From NCBI RefSeq assembly GCF_056746865.1, contig NZ_CM163382.1: 64,000 nucleotides of DNA; one strand, given 5' to 3'. Positions 28,221 through 44,346 of the stretch are shown here, piece after piece (within the stretch, counting starts at the first letter, position 1; each line of letters starts with the position of its first letter). Below the pieces are notes generated by a model that did not search any database, was not told where the DNA came from, and saw nothing but the letters and a program-made list of their open reading frames with translations. A program made the position numbers and the translations under genes.

Positions 28221-29141
28221 ATGACAAACTTCACGACCAGCACGCCGCATGATGCATTATTTAAAACCTTTCTCACGCACCCTGACACTGCGCGGGATTT
28301 TATGGAGATTCATTTACCTAAAGATTTACGTGAACTGTGCGATCTCGATAGCTTAAAACTGGAATCCGCCAGCTTTGTCGATGAAAAATTGCGGGCGCTA
28401 CACTCCGATATTTTATGGTCGGTAAAGACCCGCGAAGGCGATGGCTATATCTATGTGGTGATTGAACATCAGAGCCGCGAGGACATTCATATGGCCTTTC
28501 GCCTGATGCGCTATTCCATGGCGGTGATGCAGCGCCATATAGAGCATGATAAACGCCAGCCGCTACCGTTGGTCATCCCGATGCTATTTTATCACGGTAG
28601 CCGTAGTCCTTACCCCTGGTCCCTGTGCTGGCTGGACGAATTTGCCGACCCGACTACCGCACGGAAGCTTTATAACGCCGCGTTCCCGCTGGTGGATGTT
28701 ACTGTCGTGCCAGACGACGAGATTGTGCAGCATCGCAGAGTCGCCCTGTTGGAGTTGATCCAAAAGCATATTCGCCAGCGCGATCTGATGGGGCTTATCG
28801 ATCAACTGGTAGTATTACTGGTTACAGAGTGTGCTAATGACAGCCAGATAACTGCGCTGTTAAATTACATTTTACTGACTGGCGATGAAGCGCGTTTTAA
28901 TGAGTTTATCAGTGAACTTACCCGTCGAATGCCACAACACAGGGAGCGAATAATGACGATTGCAGAGCGAATTCATAATGATGGATATATAAAAGGGGAG
29001 CAGCGCATTCTTCGATTGTTGTTGCAGAATGGGGCGGATCCTGAATGGATACAAAAGATTACCGGACTTTCGGCAGAGCAAATGCAGGCATTAAGGCAGC
29101 CCTTGCCTGAGCGTGAGCGCTATTCATGGCTCAAGAGTTAA
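28221..29141 (+). CDS. rpnD: Rpn-family recombination-promoting nuclease (PD-(D/E)XK, transposase_31-like), full length
   Basis: 306 aa, N-terminus [38 protein letters not shown] typical of the Rpn/YhgA family; uninterrupted reading frame. Confidence 0.8.
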
Positions 29142-30973: not shown

Positions 30974-31138
30974 ATGGAATTTCACGAAAACAGAGCTAAA
31001 GCGCCGTTTATCGGCTTGGTGCAACTCTGGCAGGCGGTGAGGCGTTGGCGGCGGCAAATGCAGACCCGACGCGTGTTACAGCAGATGAGTGATGAGCGGT
31101 TGAAGGATATCGGGTTACGCAGGGAGGATGTGGAGTGA
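30974..31138 (+). CDS. yjiS: Small DUF1127-family protein YjiS (54 aa)
   Basis: ATG at 30974 preceded by GAGGAGG; translation MEFHENRAKAPFIGLVQLWQAVRRWRRQMQTRRVLQQMSDERLKDIGLRREDVE, an Arg-rich DUF1127-like peptide. It is below the ORF-track length cutoff. Confidence 0.7.
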   Translation: MEFHENRAKAPFIGLVQLWQAVRRWRRQMQTRRVLQQMSDERLKDIGLRREDVE

Positions 31139-31588
31139 GGGGGGATATAGATTTATATATAATAAAACGTTTTTATGTTTTTAAATTAAGTTATAAAAAT
31201 TTTCCCGAGACAATTCATCAATAGGTATGGAGTGTACAGGAATATCTTCTTCACTAACCTCTTTAAACTCATGTCGATAACGGTCAAAAAACGCACAGTG
31301 ATTACTTGTGTTTTTTGACTGACTTTACAACTCTCATTATTCGCTATTGTGCAGTTTCTCTAATTGTTTTATACCCTGGAAAGTTAAATGTCAGCTACTG
31401 AATACTTTTTGATTGTTTGAGATTTATTTTCATTTGAAATTATAAAATCAGGTGATAAATGAGTTGTGATTAATAGATGGTTGATATCATTTTTATCTAA
31501 AATTGATTTATAGTATCGACCTGAAAAAATAGTTGTTGCCGCCTGAGTAACTATACAATATTCTGAAAGGTTTTCTTTCAAATTAGAA

Positions 31589-34500
31589 ATGTTGTGGGGT
31601 TTTGTTTTTGTATCTTTTATCTCTAAGGAGCTTGCTTTGGGTCAATCAGAATACATTTCATGGGTAAAATGTACTTCCTGGCTAAGTAACTTTGTGAATC
31701 TTAGAGGGTTGAGACAACCGGATGGCCGTCCTCTTTATGAATATCATGCAACCAATGATGAATATACCCAATTAACGCAGCTACTCCGTGCAGTCGGTCA
31801 ATCACAATCTAATATATGTAATAGGGACTTTGCTGCCTGTTTTGTTCTTTTTTGCTCTGAGTGGTACCGCAGGGATTATGAACGGCAATGCGGATGGACG
31901 TGGGACCCTATATATAAAAAAATAGGGATTTCATTCACCGCCACAGAGCTTGGTACTATCGTACCGAAAGGGATGGAAGATTACTGGCTGCGCCCAATTC
32001 GATTTTATGAATCTGAACGACGCAATTTTCTCGGAACATTATTCAGTGAAGGTGGTTTACCTTTCCGGCTACTCAAAGAATCAGACAGTCGCTTTCTGGC
32101 TGTTTTCTCCAGGATCCTTGGACAATATGAGCAAGCAAAGCAGTCAGGTTTTTCTGCCCTTTCGCTGGCAAGAGCTGTCATAGAAAAATCAGCGCTGCCA
32201 ACTGTTTTTAGCGAAGATACCTCTGTAGAACTTATCAGTCATATGGCTGATAACCTCAATTCCTTAGTACTTACTCACAACCTAATAAATCACAAAGAAC
32301 CAGTACAACAGCTTGAGAAGGTTCACCCTACCTGGCGAAGCGAGTTTCCAATACCGTTAGATGATGAAACAGGAACGCATTTTTTGAATGGACTGCTATG
32401 CGCAGCCTCTGTAGAGGCTAAGCCTCGACTACAAAAAAATAAGAGTACGCGTTGCCAATTCTATTGGTCAGAAAAGCATCCAGATGAGCTTAGGGTGATA
32501 GTATCTCTTCCGGACGAAGTTTCCTTTCCTGTAACAAGCGAGCCGTCAACTACGCGCTTTGAACTTGCCATTTGTGAAGATGGTGAGGAAGTCTCTGGCC
32601 TTGGGCCAGCCTATGCTTCTCTGGAAAACAGACAGGCAACAGTTCGATTACGTAAAAGCGAAGTGAGATTTGGCAGGCAAAATCCATCGGCAGGTTTGTC
32701 GTTAGTGGCTCGTGCTGGAGGGATGATTGTTGGGAGCATTAAACTTGATGACAGTGAAATTGCCATTGGTGAGGTGCCGTTAACCTTCATCGTTGATGCA
32801 GATCAATGGCTGTTACAGGGACAGGCTTCTTGCAGTGTGCGAAGCAGCGATGTTCTGATTGTGCTCCCTCGGGATAATAGCAATGTTGCTGGTTTTGATG
32901 GCCAATCGAGGGCAGTAAACGTATTAGGACTAAAAGCACTACCTGTGAAGGGATGTCAGGACGTTACAGTTACAGCAAATGAAACTTATCGGATTCGCAC
33001 CGGAAGAGAACAAATCAGCATCGGAAGGTTTGCTCTAAATGGAAAGCGTGCAAGCTGGGTTTGTCATCCAGATGAAACATTTATTGGTGTACCAAAAGTC
33101 ATTTCTACACTACCGGATATTCAAAGCATTGATGTAACGCGTTACCTGAGCGGAATTTCAATTGAGCAATGTCATATACAAGAGATGCTGGGGGCTCAAT
33201 ATCTTTCTATCCGTAATAGTAAGAATGAAACGCTCTTGCGTCGCAAAATCGGTATTTTGCCTGCTGATTTCAGTATTGAGATAAAAGGTGGAATACACGC
33301 AAATGAAGGCACTATCGTAATCACCACACAGCATCCTTGTGTAGCAAAACTTAAAGATAAAACATTGGAGGCTACACGTAAGCGTACTGAGGGGCGAACA
33401 GAGATACAACTCAAAGCGGAAGGGGTACCTCCGGCATTTATTACATTACAAGTTCTGCCTAATTTGGCGGCTGACCCCATCGATATTGAGTTACCTTTTC
33501 CCGCTAAAGGCTGTCTCGCTCTTGATGTAAACGGACGTCCTCTGGATAAAAACATTACGCTGCATGATCTGCTGGGTTCCAGAGCGTTTCTGTTCTCCAG
33601 AAATGGCGAGCCGACAAGATATACATTGCAGTTGCATTTGCGCTCCGTTAGTGGATTACAGGCATGGCACGAATGGTGTTATACGGCGTTGAGCGATCGT
33701 CCTGTTGAATTGAATCTCTATAGTCTGCGCGAACATATTGAGAACCTGATTTCACTTGAGGCAGGTATTGACCAGGTTGTTGAGATGCGTATTACGGGGG
33801 CGGGTGTGGTCATGGCCTGGCAAATTCGTCGCTATAAATACAGTCTGCGCTATGATTATGAAAAAGAACTATTACTCAGCCAGTCAGTGAACCATCGTGC
33901 TGGACAGATTCCTTCCCCCGTTATCATGCTGTTAAGTGAACCCGAGAGGAAATCCATCCCCTTAGCATCAAGAATGAGCGAGGGAGTGCCTGTCGGTGAA
34001 TATGAGTTGAGCTCAATCGTTAACAAAAATGGACCGTGGTTGGTTGTCCCTAAACCGGGTGAAGAGATGGCTTTTCGTCCCTGCTTCATTCGTGGCGAAT
34101 CTTCGTTACCGGTAGAAGAAAGCAACATCCGCTCATTGCAGAAAGCGACCCAGCTTTTTAATCCACAGGCAGAAGTTAATACCATCACACTGGTTCTCGG
34201 ACAGATGGCTAACGATCCTGCCCATTCCGGCTGGCAATTTATGCGTAGCCTGTACGATCAATTTGGTTATTTACCACTGGCAACCTTTGAAGTATGGCGT
34301 GCACTGGTGCAGCATCCGCAGGCATTGGCAATGTCGCTCTTCAAATTTGAAATGTCAGCAGAGTACCTGAGTCGTATTGAGAATGAGTTCCCTATTCTAT
34401 GGGAGTTTTTCCCCATCTTTGAGATCAAAGCGGCATCTGAGCGTTTCAAATTGTTCCTGAGCCAAAAAGGTGCACCGGAGGAAACCCAGAAATTACTGGT

Positions 34501-34927
34501 TACTAATATGTTTCAACGGCTGGGGCTCGTGTTCCCGACATATGCCGATGAAATTGAGAAATGGTTAAGTAACGGACATCTCCCCCCGTCTATTCCTGAG
34601 TCTTTTGTCCACGTGTGGTATCAGGAGCTTTTACGTGAGCATAGTGAAGCTCAATGGCCAGAGTACGGCAGCAAGCGGCTGCATAGCTGGATGGCATCAC
34701 AAAAAAATCCAGTGATTGGTATTAATCCTGACGCAAATCACCGCTATTCCGTGGCCTTGTTACCCGTCTTCGCTGCAGCTGTGGCAAGCGGAAATGCTTC
34801 TTTTGAATCTGTATTTGACCGTAAACCCGGTGCCGTATTTTTCCTGAGGCAAGTCAGGGATTTCGATTCCCGCTGGTTTAAGGCCATCTTCCAGTGCAGC
34901 CTGTTGCGTTATGTTGCTAAAAAATAA
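31589..34927 (+). CDS. Large protein of unknown function (up to 1112 aa), first gene of a two-gene candidate defence operon; DruH-like by architecture
   Basis: Long uninterrupted ORF ending 12 bp before the helicase gene. No P-loop, nuclease or methylase motif recognised by eye. Coding sequence is visibly AT-richer than its neighbours. An alternative TTG start at 31637 has an AAGGAG RBS 6 nt upstream. From memory this corresponds to a full-length version of the yjiT fragment of K-12. Confidence 0.75.
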   Translation: MLWGFVFVSFISKELALGQSEYISWVKCTSWLSNFVNLRGLRQPDGRPLYEYHATNDEYTQLTQLLRAVGQSQSNICNRDFAACFVLFCSEWYRRDYERQCGWTWDPIYKKIGISFTATELGTIVPKGMEDYWLRPIRFYESERRNFLGTLFSEGGLPFRLLKESDSRFLAVFSRILGQYEQAKQSGFSALSLARAVIEKSALPTVFSEDTSVELISHMADNLNSLVLTHNLINHKEPVQQLEKVHPTWRSEFPIPLDDETGTHFLNGLLCAASVEAKPRLQKNKSTRCQFYWSEKHPDELRVIVSLPDEVSFPVTSEPSTTRFELAICEDGEEVSGLGPAYASLENRQATVRLRKSEVRFGRQNPSAGLSLVARAGGMIVGSIKLDDSEIAIGEVPLTFIVDADQWLLQGQASCSVRSSDVLIVLPRDNSNVAGFDGQSRAVNVLGLKALPVKGCQDVTVTANETYRIRTGREQISIGRFALNGKRASWVCHPDETFIGVPKVISTLPDIQSIDVTRYLSGISIEQCHIQEMLGAQYLSIRNSKNETLLRRKIGILPADFSIEIKGGIHANEGTIVITTQHPCVAKLKDKTLEATRKRTEGRTEIQLKAEGVPPAFITLQVLPNLAADPIDIELPFPAKGCLALDVNGRPLDKNITLHDLLGSRAFLFSRNGEPTRYTLQLHLRSVSGLQAWHEWCYTALSDRPVELNLYSLREHIENLISLEAGIDQVVEMRITGAGVVMAWQIRRYKYSLRYDYEKELLLSQSVNHRAGQIPSPVIMLLSEPERKSIPLASRMSEGVPVGEYELSSIVNKNGPWLVVPKPGEEMAFRPCFIRGESSLPVEESNIRSLQKATQLFNPQAEVNTITLVLGQMANDPAHSGWQFMRSLYDQFGYLPLATFEVWRALVQHPQALAMSLFKFEMSAEYLSRIENEFPILWEFFPIFEIKAASERFKLFLSQKGAPEETQKLLVTNMFQRLGLVFPTYADEIEKWLSNGHLPPSIPESFVHVWYQELLREHSEAQWPEYGSKRLHSWMASQKNPVIGINPDANHRYSVALLPVFAAAVASGNASFESVFDRKPGAVFFLRQVRDFDSRWFKAIFQCSLLRYVAKK

Positions 34928-34939
34928 AAAGGAATAAGG

Positions 34940-37900
34940 ATGACTACACGCTATTTTTCGTCACTTATTGAACAATCGTTGTCTCGTTCAACTGAAGCAA
35001 CGCTCAGTATCATGGGCGTTACCAACCCGCAGCTGCGTGAACATCTCGCGCAACAAATGGGGGCTGATTGTGGGAAACCGGGCTCATTCCTTGCTTCTCC
35101 GGTATTCCAGCAAATGTTTGGCTGGAAGGAGTCAAACCACACGATGCGCAGCCTGACGGAAGGCAACGCATTGTTGAGCAAAGCAGTGGTTGATTCACTG
35201 GATGATCAGAATAATGGCCGGTACCGGTTTGGTGCTGACTGGAGGCCTTTTACGCACCAGTTAGCCAGTTGGAAAGCTTTGCTGGAAAAGAAACATTCAG
35301 TGGTGGTAACCAGTGGTACGGGTTCAGGTAAAACGGAATGTTTTATGGTACCGGTGCTGGAAGATCTTTACCGGGAACTGCATGAAAATGGCAACAATCC
35401 GTTGGTCGGTGTCCGAGCCCTTTTTCTCTATCCATTGAACGCCCTGATTAATTCACAGCGCGAGCGTCTGGATGCCTGGACGCGTGGTTTTGGTACAGGG
35501 ATCCGCTACTGCCTTTACAACGGCAACACCGAAAACCTACACGCTTCGGTAAAAAGCGAACAGGCAAAAAGGCCGAATGAGGTGCTCTCGCGCGAAAAAA
35601 TGCGTGAAGAACCTGCGCCGATTCTGGTGACCAACGGCACGATGCTGGAATATATGATGGTTCGCCAGGTCGACGCCCCGATTATCCAGCAATCTAAAGC
35701 ACAAAAATCACTACGCTGGATTGTACTGGATGAAGCGCATACCTATGTAGGGTCGCAGGCCGCTGAACTGGCGCTCCAGCTGCGTCGTGTGATGACCGCG
35801 TTTGGCGTGACACCAGATGACGTGCGCTTTGTCGCGACCTCTGCGACCATTGCCGGCAGCGACGCTGAAAAGCAGCTGAAAAAATTTCTCTCTGAATTAT
35901 CCGGTATCCCGCAGGAGCGCATCGATGTTCTGGACGGAAGTCGGGTGATTCCTGAACTGGAACCATCCAAAAACGTTTCTGTTCCGTTAGACGAGATAGA
36001 GCAAATACCTGATCTGGATCTAAGAGATAAAAATGATAATAAAATTAAAGGGATAAGTCCTGAGCGCTTTTATGCGCTTACGCATTCCCCCGAAGCGCGT
36101 TACATACGTGAGATGTTGGTCAAACAGCCCAATCCGATGAAGCTGGATGAGATAACAGAGCGGTTACACGTGCTGACAAAACAGCATTACAGCCAGCAGG
36201 AAGTACTGCGTTGGATCGATGTCTGTTCAGGGACTCAACCTAATGCAAAGGATCCCGCATTTCTTAAAGTCAGGGCGCATATCTTCCAGCGTAATACCCA
36301 GGGAATATGGGCTTGTGTTGATAAAGATTGCAGATTAAAGCACGGTACACCGCTCGACAAAGGCTGGCCCTTTGGCTATGTGTATGTGAACCAGCGACAA
36401 AATTGTGACTGTGGAAGCCCTGTATACGAAGTTGCATTCTGTAATGATTGTAATGAGCCTCATCTTCTGGCACGGGACAAAAAGGGCAAACTAGTCCAGT
36501 GGGAAAATAAAGGTGGCGATGAATTCTCTTTGCAGGATGAAGTACCTGTTGAACATGACGCTACAGAAGAAAAAGTCGAAAAAGAGAACAGTTTTCAGCC
36601 TCCGTTGATTATTGCCGCAGGAGAGACCAGCGAGGCAGGTTATACCCTACAACGCCTCGACCGTCAGACGCGCCGTATTGGCGTTATTAACAATGACAGC
36701 ATTCCGCTGATTATTAATGATATTGAACAGGTTTGTAGTGCCAGTGGCTGTGGCTACAGAGGCATGAGTGGGAAACAGCCCTTCCGGCGTGCACTATTAG
36801 GTGGGCCATTTTACGTTACTAATATCGTGCCCACCGTTCTAGAGTATTGTCAGGACTTTACCAGTGATGAAGGCAAAGAGGGCGTCGGACCAGATTCGTT
36901 GCCAGGACGAGGTCGTCGACTCATCACCTTTACAGACAGTCGACAAGGGACAGCCCGAATGGCGGTGCGTATGCAGCAAGAAGCAGAACGCAGTCGCTTA
37001 CGCGGAAGCGTAGTCGAAATTCTCAGCTGGCATCAAAGGACGCAAACGTCTACAGCGCCGAATGCCAATGCCGATCTGGAAAAATTAGCGGCCAGGGCGA
37101 AGCAAGCCCGTGAGCAGGCAGAAGAATATCGAAGCTGGGGAATGCCAGACCAGGCGAAATTGTCACAAGCACAGGCTGAACAGCTTGAACAGGCTTATCA
37201 GGCTGCAACCGGTGGGAAAGCTGCGACTATCCTGGTATCCCGAACCTGGACGGAGATGGTTAACGAGCTTAAAGAGAGAGCCGATATCCGCGGGCCGGTT
37301 CTGCAATATAACCATTATCTTAAGCCTGAAGTGTTTAATGAAAACGGCGGCCCCCTTAAGCTTTCTGAAATGTTGTTGTTCCGGGAATTCATGCGTCGCC
37401 CTAAACGGACTAACAGCCTGGAAACACAGGGGCTGGTTCAGGTTGGTTACCAGGGGCTGGAGAAAATACATAAGAGCCCCTTGCACTGGCAGGAAAAAGG
37501 ATTAACGCTGGATGACTGGCGCGATTTTCTCAAGGTTACGTTGGATCATTACGTTCGCGAGAGCAACTTCACACAGCTGGATGATGAGCTGAAAAACTGG
37601 ATTGGTAGCCGTTTTTCATCAAAATTCGTCCGTAACCCGGAATCAAAAGATCCTGAAGATAATCAGAACAGACGCTGGCCTCAAATTCGTAATGGCAACG
37701 TATCCCATCGTTTAGCGAAGTTGCTGATGCTGGGGGCTGGATTCAAAACCGTCAATGCGGCAACTATTGATATTATCAATACATGGCTGAAAGAAGCATG
37801 GGCCCAACTTACCGGACCGCTTGCAGTACTGAAACCCGATGGCAACCGTTTTTATTTACCGAAAGAGCATATGACTTTTTCTTTAATCACGGATGCCTGG

Positions 37901-40900
37901 ATTTGCCCGGTAACCAATAAAATCCTGGATACGGCTTTTAAAGGCTTAACCCCTTATCTGCCTACCCATATTTCGTTCGAGCATCTTACCCTGGCGCAAT
38001 ATGACACTTTTGTCGCGCAGAAAGTCACAATGCCGGAAATCTGGAAGCTGGATCGTTCACAGGAAGACTACGCAGAGGGTCTGGCAAAAGCACGCGACTG
38101 GGTCAGCCATGATCCGCTGATCGCACAATTGCGGTCGGAAAACGTCTGGACAGACATTAACGATCGTGTCGTGGAAGGCGGCTTCTACTATCGTACTGCC
38201 GAGCACTCTGCCCAGCAGTCGTCAGAACGTCTGCAAAGCTATGAAAAGATGTTCAAGAATGGGCAACTAAATGTTCTCAACTGTTCCACCACCATGGAAA
38301 TGGGGGTTGATATCGGGGGTATTACTGCGGTGGTAATGAACAACGTACCGCCACATCCGGCCAACTATTTACAGCGCGCCGGGCGAGCCGGGCGTAGTAA
38401 AGAATCACGCGCGATCTCTTACACCCTATGTAAAGGTAACCCACACGACCAGCAGGTTTTTGCCAACCCGCTCTGGCCATTTGAAACCATGATCCCGGCA
38501 CCCATGGTCGCGATGAACTCCGCCCGACTGGTGCAACGTCACGTCAATGCATTATTACTGTCCGACTTTTTATGTAACGTTATTGGCGAAACCGATAAAG
38601 AAAAAACCAGCCTCGATAGCCTCTGGTTTTTCGGTGAAGATGACGGGCAGTCAAAATGCGAACGCTTTAAAATCTGGCTGGAACGTCCGGTTCTTGATAT
38701 CGACACGGCGCTGGAACGGCTGGTGAAAGGTACGGCGTTGCATGGTGCAAGAGCCGAATATCTGCGGGATAAAACAATCAACGCGATCACCTTCCTGCAA
38801 CAGCGGTGGCTCTCCGTTTATCGCGATCTCGTGACACAGGAGCGTGAGTCGCAGCCGCAAACGCCTTATCGTAAGCGCATAGAGCTGGAGAAGAAACGGC
38901 ACTGTGGCGAGTATCTGCTGCGCGATCTGGCTGCCAGAACCTTCCTGCCGGGATACGGTTTCCCGACAGATGTAGTGACGTTTGATAACTTCACGATGGA
39001 AGATTATATCCGCGAAAAATCGCAGAAAAGTCGTGATAAAAAGGACCGTGAAGATAACGTTTCCCGTTATAAAGGATTACCTTCCCGTAACCTCGGTGTT
39101 GCCATTCGTGAATATGCACCGGGAGCAGAGATCATCCTTGATGGCCGTGTCTTCCGCTCTGCCGGTGTCTCACTGCACTGGCACAACATTAATGCTGATA
39201 CCAATGAAGCCCAGCGTCTGGATTGCGCCTGGCGCTGTCACAAATGCGGGACCATTGGCTATGAAGAGGGGATGAGCAGTTCCGGGATGCTCTTTTGCTC
39301 CAATAGCGCCTGCGGCGAAAAAATAATCATGGATAATCGCCGTCAGGTGCTGCAGCCTGCCGGGTTTGTCACCGATGCACACGCTCCGGTAACGAACAAT
39401 ATTGAAACCATGAAATTCGTCCCGGTTGTCCCCGCGTGGGTCTTTGTTAAAGCAGAGCCCGTACCGTTGCCTAACCCGCTAATGGGTTATATGGCTTCTG
39501 GGGCTGATGGGCATGTTTTCCAGCAAAGTTTGGGGGAAGGTGGACACGGTTATGCATTGTGTCTGAGCTGTGGCCGTGCTGAGTCGATGCTGAATGAAAA
39601 TGATGCGCCGAAAAGTATGGAAGCTCACTATCCACCGCGTCCGGGTAAAGCGGATCGCGACAGCCAGAATCATCGTCTGATTTGCCCCGGTTCGACGGCA
39701 CTCATGAAGAATGTCACCCTGGGCGCACTGGCGCGTACCGATGTCTTTGAAATGGTTCTGCGCAAACCGCAAAACGGCGAGTATCTGCCAGATAACACAG
39801 AGGAGGGGCGGATTGTTGCCATGACTCTGGCGGTTGCTCTGCGTCAGGCGCTGGCGGGCGTTCTGGGTATCTCCGCCGCAGAACTCGGCTATTCTGTACG
39901 TCCGGTCAGACTGGAGGATGGGCAATCGGTATTAGCCGTACAGCTTTATGATGTGATCAGCGGTGGTGCAGGTTTTGCCTCCAGCGCACCGGTACACATT
40001 GAAGCTATATTGCAGGGAATGGTGAAACAGTTAGGCTGCCGCCATTGTGAGACTGCATGTAGTGAATGCCTGCTTGATTCCCAGACTCGCCACGATCACG
40101 ATTTGCTGGATCGCAAAGCGGCGCTGGCCTGGCTTGGCGATGACTTCACGTATTACATCGGTTTACCGGATGAAGAGACATTCTCGCTGCCGGATGCCCG
40201 CTACTGCCCTGGCGCCATTGGCGATACGATTCGCCGGGCGATTAACGAAGGCGCTGAAAAGCTCACCCTGTGGATGACCGGCGCGCCCAATGAGTGGGAT
40301 TTATACGCACGTCAGTTCCGCGCGGCGGTTCAGAACTATCGGCTAAAAGACAACGTCGAGGTCGATCTTGTTATTCCTACGGGAGTGGATGACCCGGACC
40401 TGTTGCATGAACTATCGCAATTTACTGCGCTGGGTGTGCGGCTGTGCCATGTTGAACAGGATCTGCAATTACCGATCGTTGCCCAGGTCACCTTTACCGA
40501 TCGCGTGATGACGCTGGCCTCTCGCAGCCAGCAGGCAACGATTCCGGGGCCGGAGTGGCACCTGAATGACGAACTGGTGGTGCGTAGTCTCGGTTATAAA
40601 ACGGTAGAACTGAACGAGTTTATTCTGCCGGCTAAAGCCACCAACGCTGTCGAGCGGGTCAAAGACATTCAGATCCACAAACAGTTGAATGGACCACTGT
40701 CGCAGTTTGGGCAACGCTTCTGGGACGTGCTGTTTAACGACCATGAAGAAGCGCAGTCACTGATGAATAACACGCGAATTACCGGCGTTCACTATACCGA
40801 TCGCTATCTGCAAAACCCGGTTGCGCTGGCGTTGTTGGGATCAATTCTGAGACCGCTAAAAACAAAGCTGACCGATGGCGCTGAAGTGACGCTGGATACG

Positions 40901-41284
40901 CTATTTAAAGATAAAGATCGCCCCGGTAACCGGCCTTTCCATGACTGGATGAGCATAGCGGATTTTCAGGATTTCGCTGATCAGTGGTTTGCTGCTGCGC
41001 TGGGCAGGCCGGTAGAACTGACGGTGTTCGACTCGCCGCGCGATATCCCTCACCATCGTAAACTGACGGTGACTTTTGAGGATGGTCAGGTATTGAAGAT
41101 CCGCTTCGATCAGGGGATGGGCTACTGGCGCATCAACTTTTCATCGCAATGGCATTACTTTGATTTCCGCGATGACGTTTCTTTCCAGTTAGTCAAAATG
41201 GCTCAGGCCTGCAAGGAAGGGAATGTCGCCAACAGCGAAGAGAGTTGGGCAACGGATGTGCTGGTGGAGGTGATCGCCTCCTGA
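34940..41284 (+). CDS. Giant (2114 aa) superfamily-2 DEAH-box helicase with Zn-ribbon / DUF1998-like Cys clusters; DruE-like by architecture
   Basis: ATG at 34940 with AAGGA RBS. Walker A GTGSGKTE (35315-35338), motif II IVLDEAH (35720-35740), motif [10 protein letters not shown] (38372-38395), Cys clusters CAWRCHKCG (39224-39247) and [11 protein letters not shown] (40037-40069). Operonic with the upstream 1112-aa gene. Confidence 0.85.
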
Positions 41285-43927: not shown

Positions 43928-44269
43928 TTACGCGACTTTCTGTTTACCGGCAATCACTCCAATAAACGCCTGCACCTGCTTTTGTTTACGCGCCGACAGT
44001 TTGCACACCTGGCGTAGCGACTGCATCAGTTCGCTCTCCTCGGCGGCGGGTGGTTGGGCGGTGAGGACAATACAGCCTTCCATCACTTTGACATCTACCG
44101 CCGTGCCAGTGGCAAAACCGGCGGCTTCCAGCCACTGACCTTTCAGGGTGATGGCGGGAATACGGCTGTAATCCGGGTAGCGACTCGCATAACCGACGGT
44201 GACATGACGGTTATTTGCCGGGGAGACTTCTGCTTCGAACGGTTGTGCAATAGAATGCGTGTCAGTCAT
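43928..44269 (-). CDS. symE: SOS-induced toxin-like protein SymE (type I toxin-antitoxin, AbrB-fold)
   Basis: 113 aa from [34 protein letters not shown]; located between mcrB and hsdS; the track ORF is extended upstream. Confidence 0.8.
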
Positions 44270-44338
44270 AACTGCTATTCTCCAGGAATAGTGATTGTGA
44301 TTAGCGATGCGGGTGTGTTGGCGCACATCCGCACCGCG
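44262..44338 (+). ncRNA. symR: Candidate antisense sRNA SymR (RyjC) overlapping the symE 5' end; coordinates approximate
   Basis: Established knowledge that a roughly 77-nt cis-antisense RNA overlaps the symE ribosome-binding site and start codon. The exact ends cannot be fixed from sequence; a 9-bp stem hairpin at 44309-44332 lies within the region. Confidence 0.25.
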
Positions 44339-44346
44339 CTAAATAC

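Follow-up and report, generated by a model that had tools for sequence, protein, structure and literature searches.

Type III Druantia, an anti-phage system in which the protein DruH is paired with the helicase DruE, was the subject of five papers in May and June 2026. Here we compare the systems described there with a locus in a stretch of 64,000 nucleotides (contig NZ_CM163382.1; the whole stretch is called the window). An earlier note, made from the letters alone, had described in it an open reading frame (ORF) of 1112 codons at position 31589–34927 as one half of a likely defence pair. Judging from its sequence, this gene is yjiT. Its product is DruH, the partner of the helicase in a chromosomally encoded Druantia system of type III. 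The name and family of the gene, its role in defence and its TTG start can all be found already in public annotation and recent papers; the earlier note had missed that the gene was already named yjiT/DruH and already annotated from the TTG.

Druantia III comprises 15 clades according to Wu et al. (2026), whose own experiments concern one of them, cluster 11. Deletion of druH of the E. coli cluster 11 system abolishes defence (Himpich et al. 2026; Hu et al. 2026). Cryo-electron microscopy (cryo-EM) of the corresponding protein, EcDruH, revealed single-stranded DNA (ssDNA) or ATP in the same pocket between the fifth immunoglobulin-like domain (Ig5) and the C-terminal domain, with ATP competing, and the exchanges R1031A, H1062A and R1064A cut defence about 10-fold (Hu et al. 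2026). Wu et al. (2026) describe ATP/Mg bound by R1064, K1067, N672, Y733 and D735, find the N-terminal surface of EcDruH (residues 63–137) essential for activation, report a nicking activity which is weak for the monomer and strong for the dimer, and favour protein sensing. According to Himpich et al. (2026) DruH is monomeric and any tag on it kills defence. In Pseudomonas aeruginosa defence needs both genes, PaDruH is a Mg-dependent 3′–5′ ssDNA exonuclease trimming forked DNA, and its C-terminal helical domain contacts the DruE stalk, both proteins forming a 1:1 complex on forks (Loeff, Chanez and Jinek 2026; cited below as Loeff et al.). In Mycobacterium smegmatis DruH and DruE are both important for defence, their interaction is required, and a minor tail protein of the phage acts as activator (Li and He 2026).

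More distant relatives are known for the helicase half. DruE shares the superfamily 2 (SF2) helicase core and the MZB/DUF1998 region with the MrfA–MrfB pair of Bacillus subtilis and with DrmA/DrmB of DISARM, and Hu et al. cite MrfA together with its 3′–5′ exonuclease partner as the logic for DruH. Compared with MrfB and DrmC, DruH has neither a DEDD nor any other recognisable exonuclease domain and no sequence relation to these proteins, and a methyltransferase is lacking.

Identity of the gene and its translation start

The ORF is found as it had been described, on the plus strand and with 1112 codons if counted from the ATG at 31589, and the next in-frame stop upstream is at 31544. From its length and its full-length matches to family profiles it is not a chance feature. 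The PADLOC model DruH3 PDLC00049 scores 1826.9 bits (residues 19–1112 of the ORF counted from ATG against positions 3–1099 of 1100), eleven additional PADLOC DruH3 models match as well, and the NCBIfam model NF038336 (YjiT_fam, the STY4851/ECs_5259 family) reaches 1257.8 bits at a cutoff of 150 and over its whole length (1–1090 of 1090). The protein is 100% identical to RefSeq WP_001513100.1, 'protein YjiT', the DNA of the locus is 100% identical to that of annotated E. coli genomes, and the window as a whole differs from E. coli FDAARGOS_497 (2229805–2293804) at 4 of 64,000 positions. E. coli YjiT (WP_001513100.1; b4342 in K-12) is the same gene in the same place, between yjiS and mcrC, and with the same TTG start. 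In newer Pfam releases homologues of DruH carry the labels YjiT_N (PF27201) and YjiT_2nd (PF27205), and homologues of DruE the label YjiV_N.

The gene downstream is druE. Its product matches PADLOC DruE3 PDLC00037 with 2700.9 bits over positions 1–2053 of 2055 and contains the Pfam domains DEAD (1e-22), Helicase_C (9.6e-12) and MZB (4.1e-09). The locus has what is asked of a type III Druantia system: a full-length match to DruH, an adjacent DruE on the same strand, and in the latter the SF2 core with MZB/DUF1998. The pair comprises two genes only; druA–D, druM, druF and druG are absent, the pair being flanked by yjiS on the upstream side and by mcrC, in convergent orientation, on the downstream side. 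Thus the suspected defence pair is indeed one, namely DruH3 plus DruE3 of type III Druantia as already catalogued in PADLOC. In every related locus that reaches druE, this gene lies within 13 nt of druH or overlaps it, and no convincing terminator or promoter was found in the junction between the two genes. Within the type, systems with a long DruE that has a C-terminal phospholipase D (PLD) region are classified as III-A and those with a compact DruE as III-B. The DruE of the window, with 2114 amino acids, spans the full length of the DruE3 profile (2055 positions) and can be aligned with the cluster 11 DruE in 2195 columns, which points towards III-A.

Concerning the start of the protein, the ATG at 31589 had been noted to have no good Shine–Dalgarno (SD) sequence, and the in-frame TTG at 31637, preceded by AAGGAG (31625–31630) with a spacer of 6 nt, had been preferred, which gives a product about 16 residues shorter. 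This proposal is borne out in each of its parts: five independent lines of evidence support that DruH is translated from TTG 31637 and not from ATG 31589. The predicted pairing with the 3′ end of the 16S rRNA is −8.3 kcal/mol for the TTG and −2.2 kcal/mol for the ATG, the latter being background, as arbitrary positions inside the ORF have a mean of −2.26 kcal/mol. The Prokaryotic Genome Annotation Pipeline (PGAP) starts WP_001513100.1 at this TTG, the curated K-12 gene b4342 begins equally far from yjiS, and the alignment to the PADLOC DruH profile opens two residues past the TTG, at profile position 3; PGAP, K-12 and the homologues all speak for 1096 instead of 1112 amino acids.

The motif AAGGAG-N6-TTG is exactly preserved in related loci. 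It is invariant in six other homologous loci, among them a 77% identical one and those of Cronobacter, Salmonella Typhi, Klebsiella and Kosakonia, and in one further E. coli allele; at the position of the TTG there is GTG in Serratia and ATG in Azotobacter. The DNA upstream of the SD of druH defies alignment across genera. Five of the TTG loci, as well as those of Serratia and Azotobacter, have an in-frame stop 5–15 codons upstream without any ATG, GTG or TTG in between, so that no longer DruH product is possible there. In the second E. coli allele (L016:1453–1458), whose protein is 97% identical and stands for a cluster of 1866 sequences, the sequence ATG TTG at 31589–31594 of the window is replaced by ATA TTC, which removes the upstream start candidates, and the SD and the TTG are unchanged. 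The extension of 16 residues, MLWGFVFVSFISKELA, is missing from 22 of the 24 homologues inspected, and the two extensions made by gene callers (P0017, P0021) have in common with it only the residues encoded by the SD. It is hydrophobic, with a Kyte–Doolittle mean of 2.0 across the first 12 residues. The cluster 11 DruH of E. coli (L008:12001) is likewise annotated from a TTG.

It is extremely unlikely that translation starts at ATG 31589 and yields the protein of 1112 amino acids, be it alone or alongside the TTG form. ATG is the stronger start codon and the one at 31589 is the first start codon past the in-frame stop, but it has no SD, pairs with the rRNA at background level only, and is replaced by ATA in the second allele of E. 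coli. Gene callers have lengthened two homologues (P0017 and P0021) upstream in the same way, yet five homologous loci are devoid of any upstream start codon, the extension is hydrophobic and not conserved, and the gene begins at the TTG both in PGAP and in the annotation of K-12. The ATG is on the mRNA if the predicted promoter at 31417–31446 is used; as the TTG is on this mRNA too, the choice between the two starts would be made by the ribosome. In addition, every tag that was tried at either end of EcDruH abolished defence (Himpich et al.), and thus additional residues at the N-terminus would probably not be tolerated. For practical purposes this means that the listed ORF should lose 16 codons, down to the TTG, and that a clone beginning at the ATG would carry extra hydrophobic residues at the N-terminus of a protein whose studied homologue does not function with tags.

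The weak start codon TTG together with AAGGAG-N6 is kept in druH genes of the Enterobacterales (L002, L003, L006, L013, L014). It may be, and this is a guess, that the TTG holds DruH low relative to DruE. The Azotobacter locus has, besides the ATG start of druH, a druE which overlaps druH by 8 nt (L015:3953–3960) and an uncharacterised ORF of 121 amino acids directly upstream of druH (L015:230–595).

Domain organization and comparison with studied DruH proteins

The earlier note had seen no recognisable enzymatic motif in the protein and had considered it not obviously membrane-bound, and both observations hold. A Pfam-A scan gave no match even at E ≤ 10 (the library used is older than the release with YjiT_N and YjiT_2nd), and searches with regular expressions detected no Walker A, DExH, methyltransferase, PLD or GIY-YIG pattern. 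A string resembling PD..(D/E)xK at residue 1031 is a pattern match only, lies in a helical region and is not a credible nuclease motif. No transmembrane helix is predicted, as the highest Kyte–Doolittle value of a 19-residue window is 1.51.

The AlphaFold2 model of DruH, which was built on 65 homologues and has a mean predicted local distance difference test (pLDDT) score of 82.5, consists of helices (residues 4–265), a β-rich part (272–818) and again helices (834–1095). According to this model the fold known from the cryo-EM structures, that is, a helical N-domain, a tandem of Ig/Fn3-like domains and a helical C-domain, is present here. The structure prediction and fold search which had been proposed as a check returned Ig/Fn3 matches only and no catalytic fold. 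With Foldseek against the PDB (entries to 2026-04-08, thus without 9tud) we obtained only generic Ig receptors; the structural neighbours ICAM-1, NCAM2 and IL-27R are the same as those published for DruH. A search against the viral models of BFVD yielded only tandem-Ig tail and adhesin proteins with a template modelling (TM) score near 0.1, which is uninformative with respect to the baseplate-J idea discussed below. The invariant positions of an alignment of 65 sequences are counted per domain in Table 1; within the clade the N-domain and the C-domain are the best conserved. They include five acidic residues of the N-domain (D29, E42, E75, E138 and D242) and the motif FFLRQVRDFD at 1068–1077 of the C-domain, and the most variable stretch of the protein is found at residues 382–490.

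PaDruH has the same architecture as DruH, with Ig-like domains in the middle and a helical domain at either end, and its defence function needs DruE. Its proposed catalytic cleft is located in the conserved N-domain, and for the residues R22, K28, E64 and E220 of PaDruH we infer that the counterparts in DruH are probably R23, R31 and E75.

For comparison with EcDruH we took the gene from E. coli Ecol_316, using the DNA of a fragment and then megablast against E. coli genomes; a word-indexed protein search with a 240-residue fragment of 9tud had returned only two fragments. The residues of the Ecol_316 protein agree with the published numbering and with PDB entry 9tud, and its locus (L008) sits beside zorA2, zorB2 and zorE. 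Cluster 11 druH was found in 515 genomes. The relationship between both proteins is remote and nevertheless clear: DruH is found with 9tud by phmmer at E = 1.7e-21 and by hhalign with a probability of 99.7–99.9% at 20–21% identity, whereas BLASTP aligns EcDruH and DruH over the first 246 residues only (27% identity). The two DruE proteins are 33% identical in an alignment of 2195 columns (2104 amino acids in cluster 11). Both DruH proteins belong to the same family, have the same domain order and fall in the same length class (1119 and 1096 amino acids), and in both loci druH is annotated from a TTG and followed directly by druE. The genomic context differs. The cluster 11 system (ATCC 8739, EDL933 OI-172, NCTC12923; type III-A) lies next to Zorya II in a SPIDER element, a mobile island that also carries ARMADA II, whereas the locus of the window is part of the Immigration Control Region next to mcrBC. 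The locus does not fit cluster 11, given the identities of about 20% for DruH and 33% for DruE and the lack of Zorya genes nearby.

The residue numbers of Hu et al. cannot be applied directly to DruH; no match is obtained in either numbering, because their DruH is a different protein of 1119 amino acids. We therefore used an alignment made with MAFFT of 138 sequences. An exhaustive search (1342 clusters at E ≤ 0.001) contributed 125 representatives to it, the others being EcDruH, DruH itself and 11 proteins of the clade of DruH. In this alignment, and likewise with hhalign, the residues of EcDruH whose mutation abolishes defence are near-universal and are all present in DruH: F69, E75, R78/R79, W88 and Y114/W115 correspond to F69, E75, R78, R79, W89 and Y116/W117 of DruH, and L129, T131/L132, G136/G137 and P182 correspond to L132, T134/L135, G139/G140 and P188. 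H85 and K87 are not conserved in this part of DruH.

The result is different for the pocket that binds ATP or ssDNA in EcDruH. Neither with hhalign nor in the alignment of 138 sequences do Y670, N672, H689, Y733 and D735 or R1031, H1062, R1064 and K1067 have a counterpart in DruH. These residues are unmatched in most of the family and vary even among the six closest cluster 11-like representatives. The equivalent stretches of DruH are at about residues 660–735 and 1010–1040 (window positions about 33615–33840 and 34665–34755). The conserved R1036 of DruH aligns near H1062 of EcDruH in a region where the alignment is unreliable, and past residue ~960 EcDruH can be aligned with just 5 of 150 representatives of the family. 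Thus, going by sequence and with the weak alignment there, we do not find the pocket in DruH, though an equivalent site may exist in the structure.

Possible mode of action

Taken as a whole, the locus is probably best explained as the TTG-initiated YjiT/DruH of a type III Druantia system which works by a mechanism as in the homologues. yjiT would be co-transcribed with druE and its product would be a soluble DruH of 1096 amino acids. The earlier note had held that its view would fail if the gene were dispensable; DruH was indispensable in every homologue tested, and by analogy with these distant relatives it would be indispensable for defence here as well. DruH may engage exposed ssDNA or the 3′ ends at forked intermediates of phage replication or recombination, and its C-domain may recruit or license DruE, with the contact to the DruE stalk carried over by homology. 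The phage DNA would then be unwound by DruE in 3′–5′ direction and, according to two groups, also be degraded, so that the phage would be cleared and the cell would survive. We suggest that the surface of the N-domain with E75, R78, R79, W89, W117, G139 and G140 is the functional core, be it catalytic or regulatory, and that the variable Ig region probably tunes recognition.

Several points weigh against this explanation. Hu et al. (2026) detected no nuclease activity and no stable complex of DruE and DruH, and in the study of Himpich et al. (2026) the association of both proteins in vivo was indirect and lost on infection. In fact, the published activities of DruH conflict with each other as to whether it is a nuclease, whether it forms a complex and whether a dimer nicks DNA. 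No catalytic motif or fold is detectable in DruH with Pfam-A, regular expressions or fold searches. The distance to EcDruH is large, the residues of the pocket have no counterparts, and in the papers that we found, no experiment is described for the clade of the Immigration Control Region. Finally, expression of the operon, whose promoter is a prediction only, may be silenced. The question whether this protein is a sensor or an effector, which the earlier note had raised, is a live one and is disputed among the five papers of 2026.

Wu et al. favour the sensor, and one could suppose that DruH is mainly a protein-recognising sensor whose Ig-like domains bind a structural protein of the phage, from the baseplate or tail, and that binding switches DruH via dimerisation or a nucleotide, which would be compatible with engagement of DNA. 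They base this on baseplate-J-like and Ig-like features, on coimmunoprecipitation with a homologue of T4 gp7, on positive selection in the Ig domains and on the faster divergence of DruH as compared to DruE. In our comparisons, conservation of DruH is lowest in the Ig region, with residues 382–490 as the most variable stretch, and the two E. coli systems are more alike in DruE (33% identity) than in DruH (~20%). However, the reported coimmunoprecipitation was weak, the fold searches yield nothing but tandem-Ig proteins of a generic kind (TM scores near 0.1), with no baseplate wedge among the top matches, and for two other groups the structure of the DNA alone explains activation. Moreover, the residues which are invariant across the family are located in the helical N-domain and not in the Ig region. 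We regard such a function as unlikely to be the principal one, though it deserves to be taken seriously.

The structures with ssDNA and ATP of Hu et al. lead to another proposal, in which DruH is a non-catalytic clamp for ssDNA and is gated by ATP in the pocket between Ig5 and the C-domain: normally ATP would fill this pocket, and when ATP drops on infection, DruH would bind the ssDNA released by DruE and immobilise the phage genome. The missing nuclease activity, the 10-fold reduction of defence in the pocket mutants and the ATP/Mg also seen by Wu et al. fit this proposal. For the protein of the window it appears quite improbable, as the pocket residues are unmatched in DruH and variable among the closest relatives of EcDruH, and as nuclease activity was detected by both Loeff et al. 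and Wu et al.; the small number of representatives that align in the C-terminal part has to be kept in mind here, the alignment being weak there.

Returning to the mechanism shared with the homologues, we put forward as a speculation, which is rather unlikely to hold in all its parts, that the YjiT clade, the namesake of the family, may work without the ATP-competitive pocket, which would make gating by ATP specific for certain lineages, that the N-terminal surface may be the core of all DruH proteins, and that the TTG may limit DruH. The YjiT clade is a natural comparison for the conflicting models of DruH from 2026, as by sequence the N-terminal surface is kept and the pocket is not. Testing this clade would show which of the reported activities are family-wide.

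Expression, neighbourhood and decay of the locus

The features of the locus are compiled in Table 1.

Table 1. Positions in the window of yjiT/druH, druE and their associated elements
Feature	Position	Strand	Remarks
Predicted sigma-70 promoter of yjiT/druH, TTGAGA-18-TATAAA	31417..31446	+	In the AT-rich yjiS–yjiT spacer
5′ leader, non-coding (extension from ATG 31589)	31589..31636	+	Encodes MLWGFVFVSFISKELA, hydrophobic, without SD
SD sequence AAGGAG	31625..31630	+	6 nt before TTG; anti-SD pairing −8.3 kcal/mol
yjiT = druH coding sequence	31637..34927	+	TTG start, 1096 amino acids, 124 kDa, stop TAA 34925–34927
DruH N-terminal region, helical (4–265)	31637..32431	+	AlphaFold2 model; 51 of 265 positions invariant; YjiT_N PF27201 in newer Pfam
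DruH central β-rich region (272–818), tandem Ig/Fn3-like	32450..34090	+	Most variable part; 40 of 547 positions invariant
DruH C-terminal α-helical domain (834–1096)	34136..34924	+	AlphaFold2 model; 30 of 263 positions invariant
druH–druE junction, 12 nt	34928..34939	+	Purine-rich, SD-like AAAGGAATAAGG, pairing −5.6 kcal/mol
druE (intact form of K-12 yjiV)	34940..41284	+	SF2 helicase of 2114 amino acids with MrfA-type Zn-binding domain

For the spacer between yjiS and yjiT, a constitutive RpoD promoter is listed together with an H-NS site in a genomic study using systematic evolution of ligands by exponential enrichment (SELEX; Shimada et al. 2014, PMC3946193). The predicted promoter sequence has a single exact match in the window and is conserved in the second E. 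coli allele. A scan of 31100–31700 for consensus promoters called none, since the hexamers of the published promoter are weaker than the scan requires. The GC content is 38.5% over 31000–31999. Given this base composition and the H-NS site, silencing of the operon is possible. Himpich et al. (2026) found that both H-NS and StpA have a part in defence by Druantia III.

The order of the genes is yjiR, yjiS, yjiT, the DEAD/DEAH helicase gene, mcrC, mcrB, symE, hsdS, hsdM, hsdR and mrr, which places druH–druE in the Immigration Control Region of E. coli, between yjiS and mcrBC. K-12 MG1655 lacks two segments of this region, one of 3017 bp (window 33146–36162) with the remaining 3′ part of yjiT and the first part of druE, and one of 2182 bp (38313–40494) inside druE. 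The yjiT gene of K-12 (505 amino acids) and the pseudogene yjiV are the remnants which these deletions left of the intact operon carried by the window, and this helps to explain why yjiT and yjiV stayed uncharacterised for decades. Of 5426 complete E. coli genomes, 635 have a match to the region, but a coverage of the query of 80% or more is reached in only 222 of them. In several genomes the yjiT region is disrupted by insertion sequences (IS) of the types IS1, IS1414 (IS256-like) and IS3 family. Thus the system has been lost recurrently.

Split druE genes were observed in Salmonella Typhi (L004:6313–9300, ORFs of 845 and 1281 amino acids) and in a further locus (L002:6301–9288, ORFs of 121 and 1984 amino acids); these are probably frameshift pseudogenes.

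Given how often the locus decays, by deletions as in K-12, by IS insertions, by splitting of druE or by the losses visible in the coverage, and given its AT-rich leader with the listed H-NS site, the operon could also be an inactive or silenced relic in this strain which is on its way to the state in K-12. This is very improbable: both ORFs are intact and identical to those of many independent E. coli genomes, and the start signals, the invariant residues and the druH–druE junction are all preserved.

Two further elements of the window differ from or resemble K-12. A gene for a recombination-promoting nuclease of the Rpn family is intact at 28221–29141 (+), and its counterpart in K-12, rpnD, is annotated as a pseudogene. 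The small RNA SymR, the antitoxin (Rfam RF01809, 95 bits), is found at 44264–44340 (+), where, just like in K-12, it is antisense to the beginning of symE.

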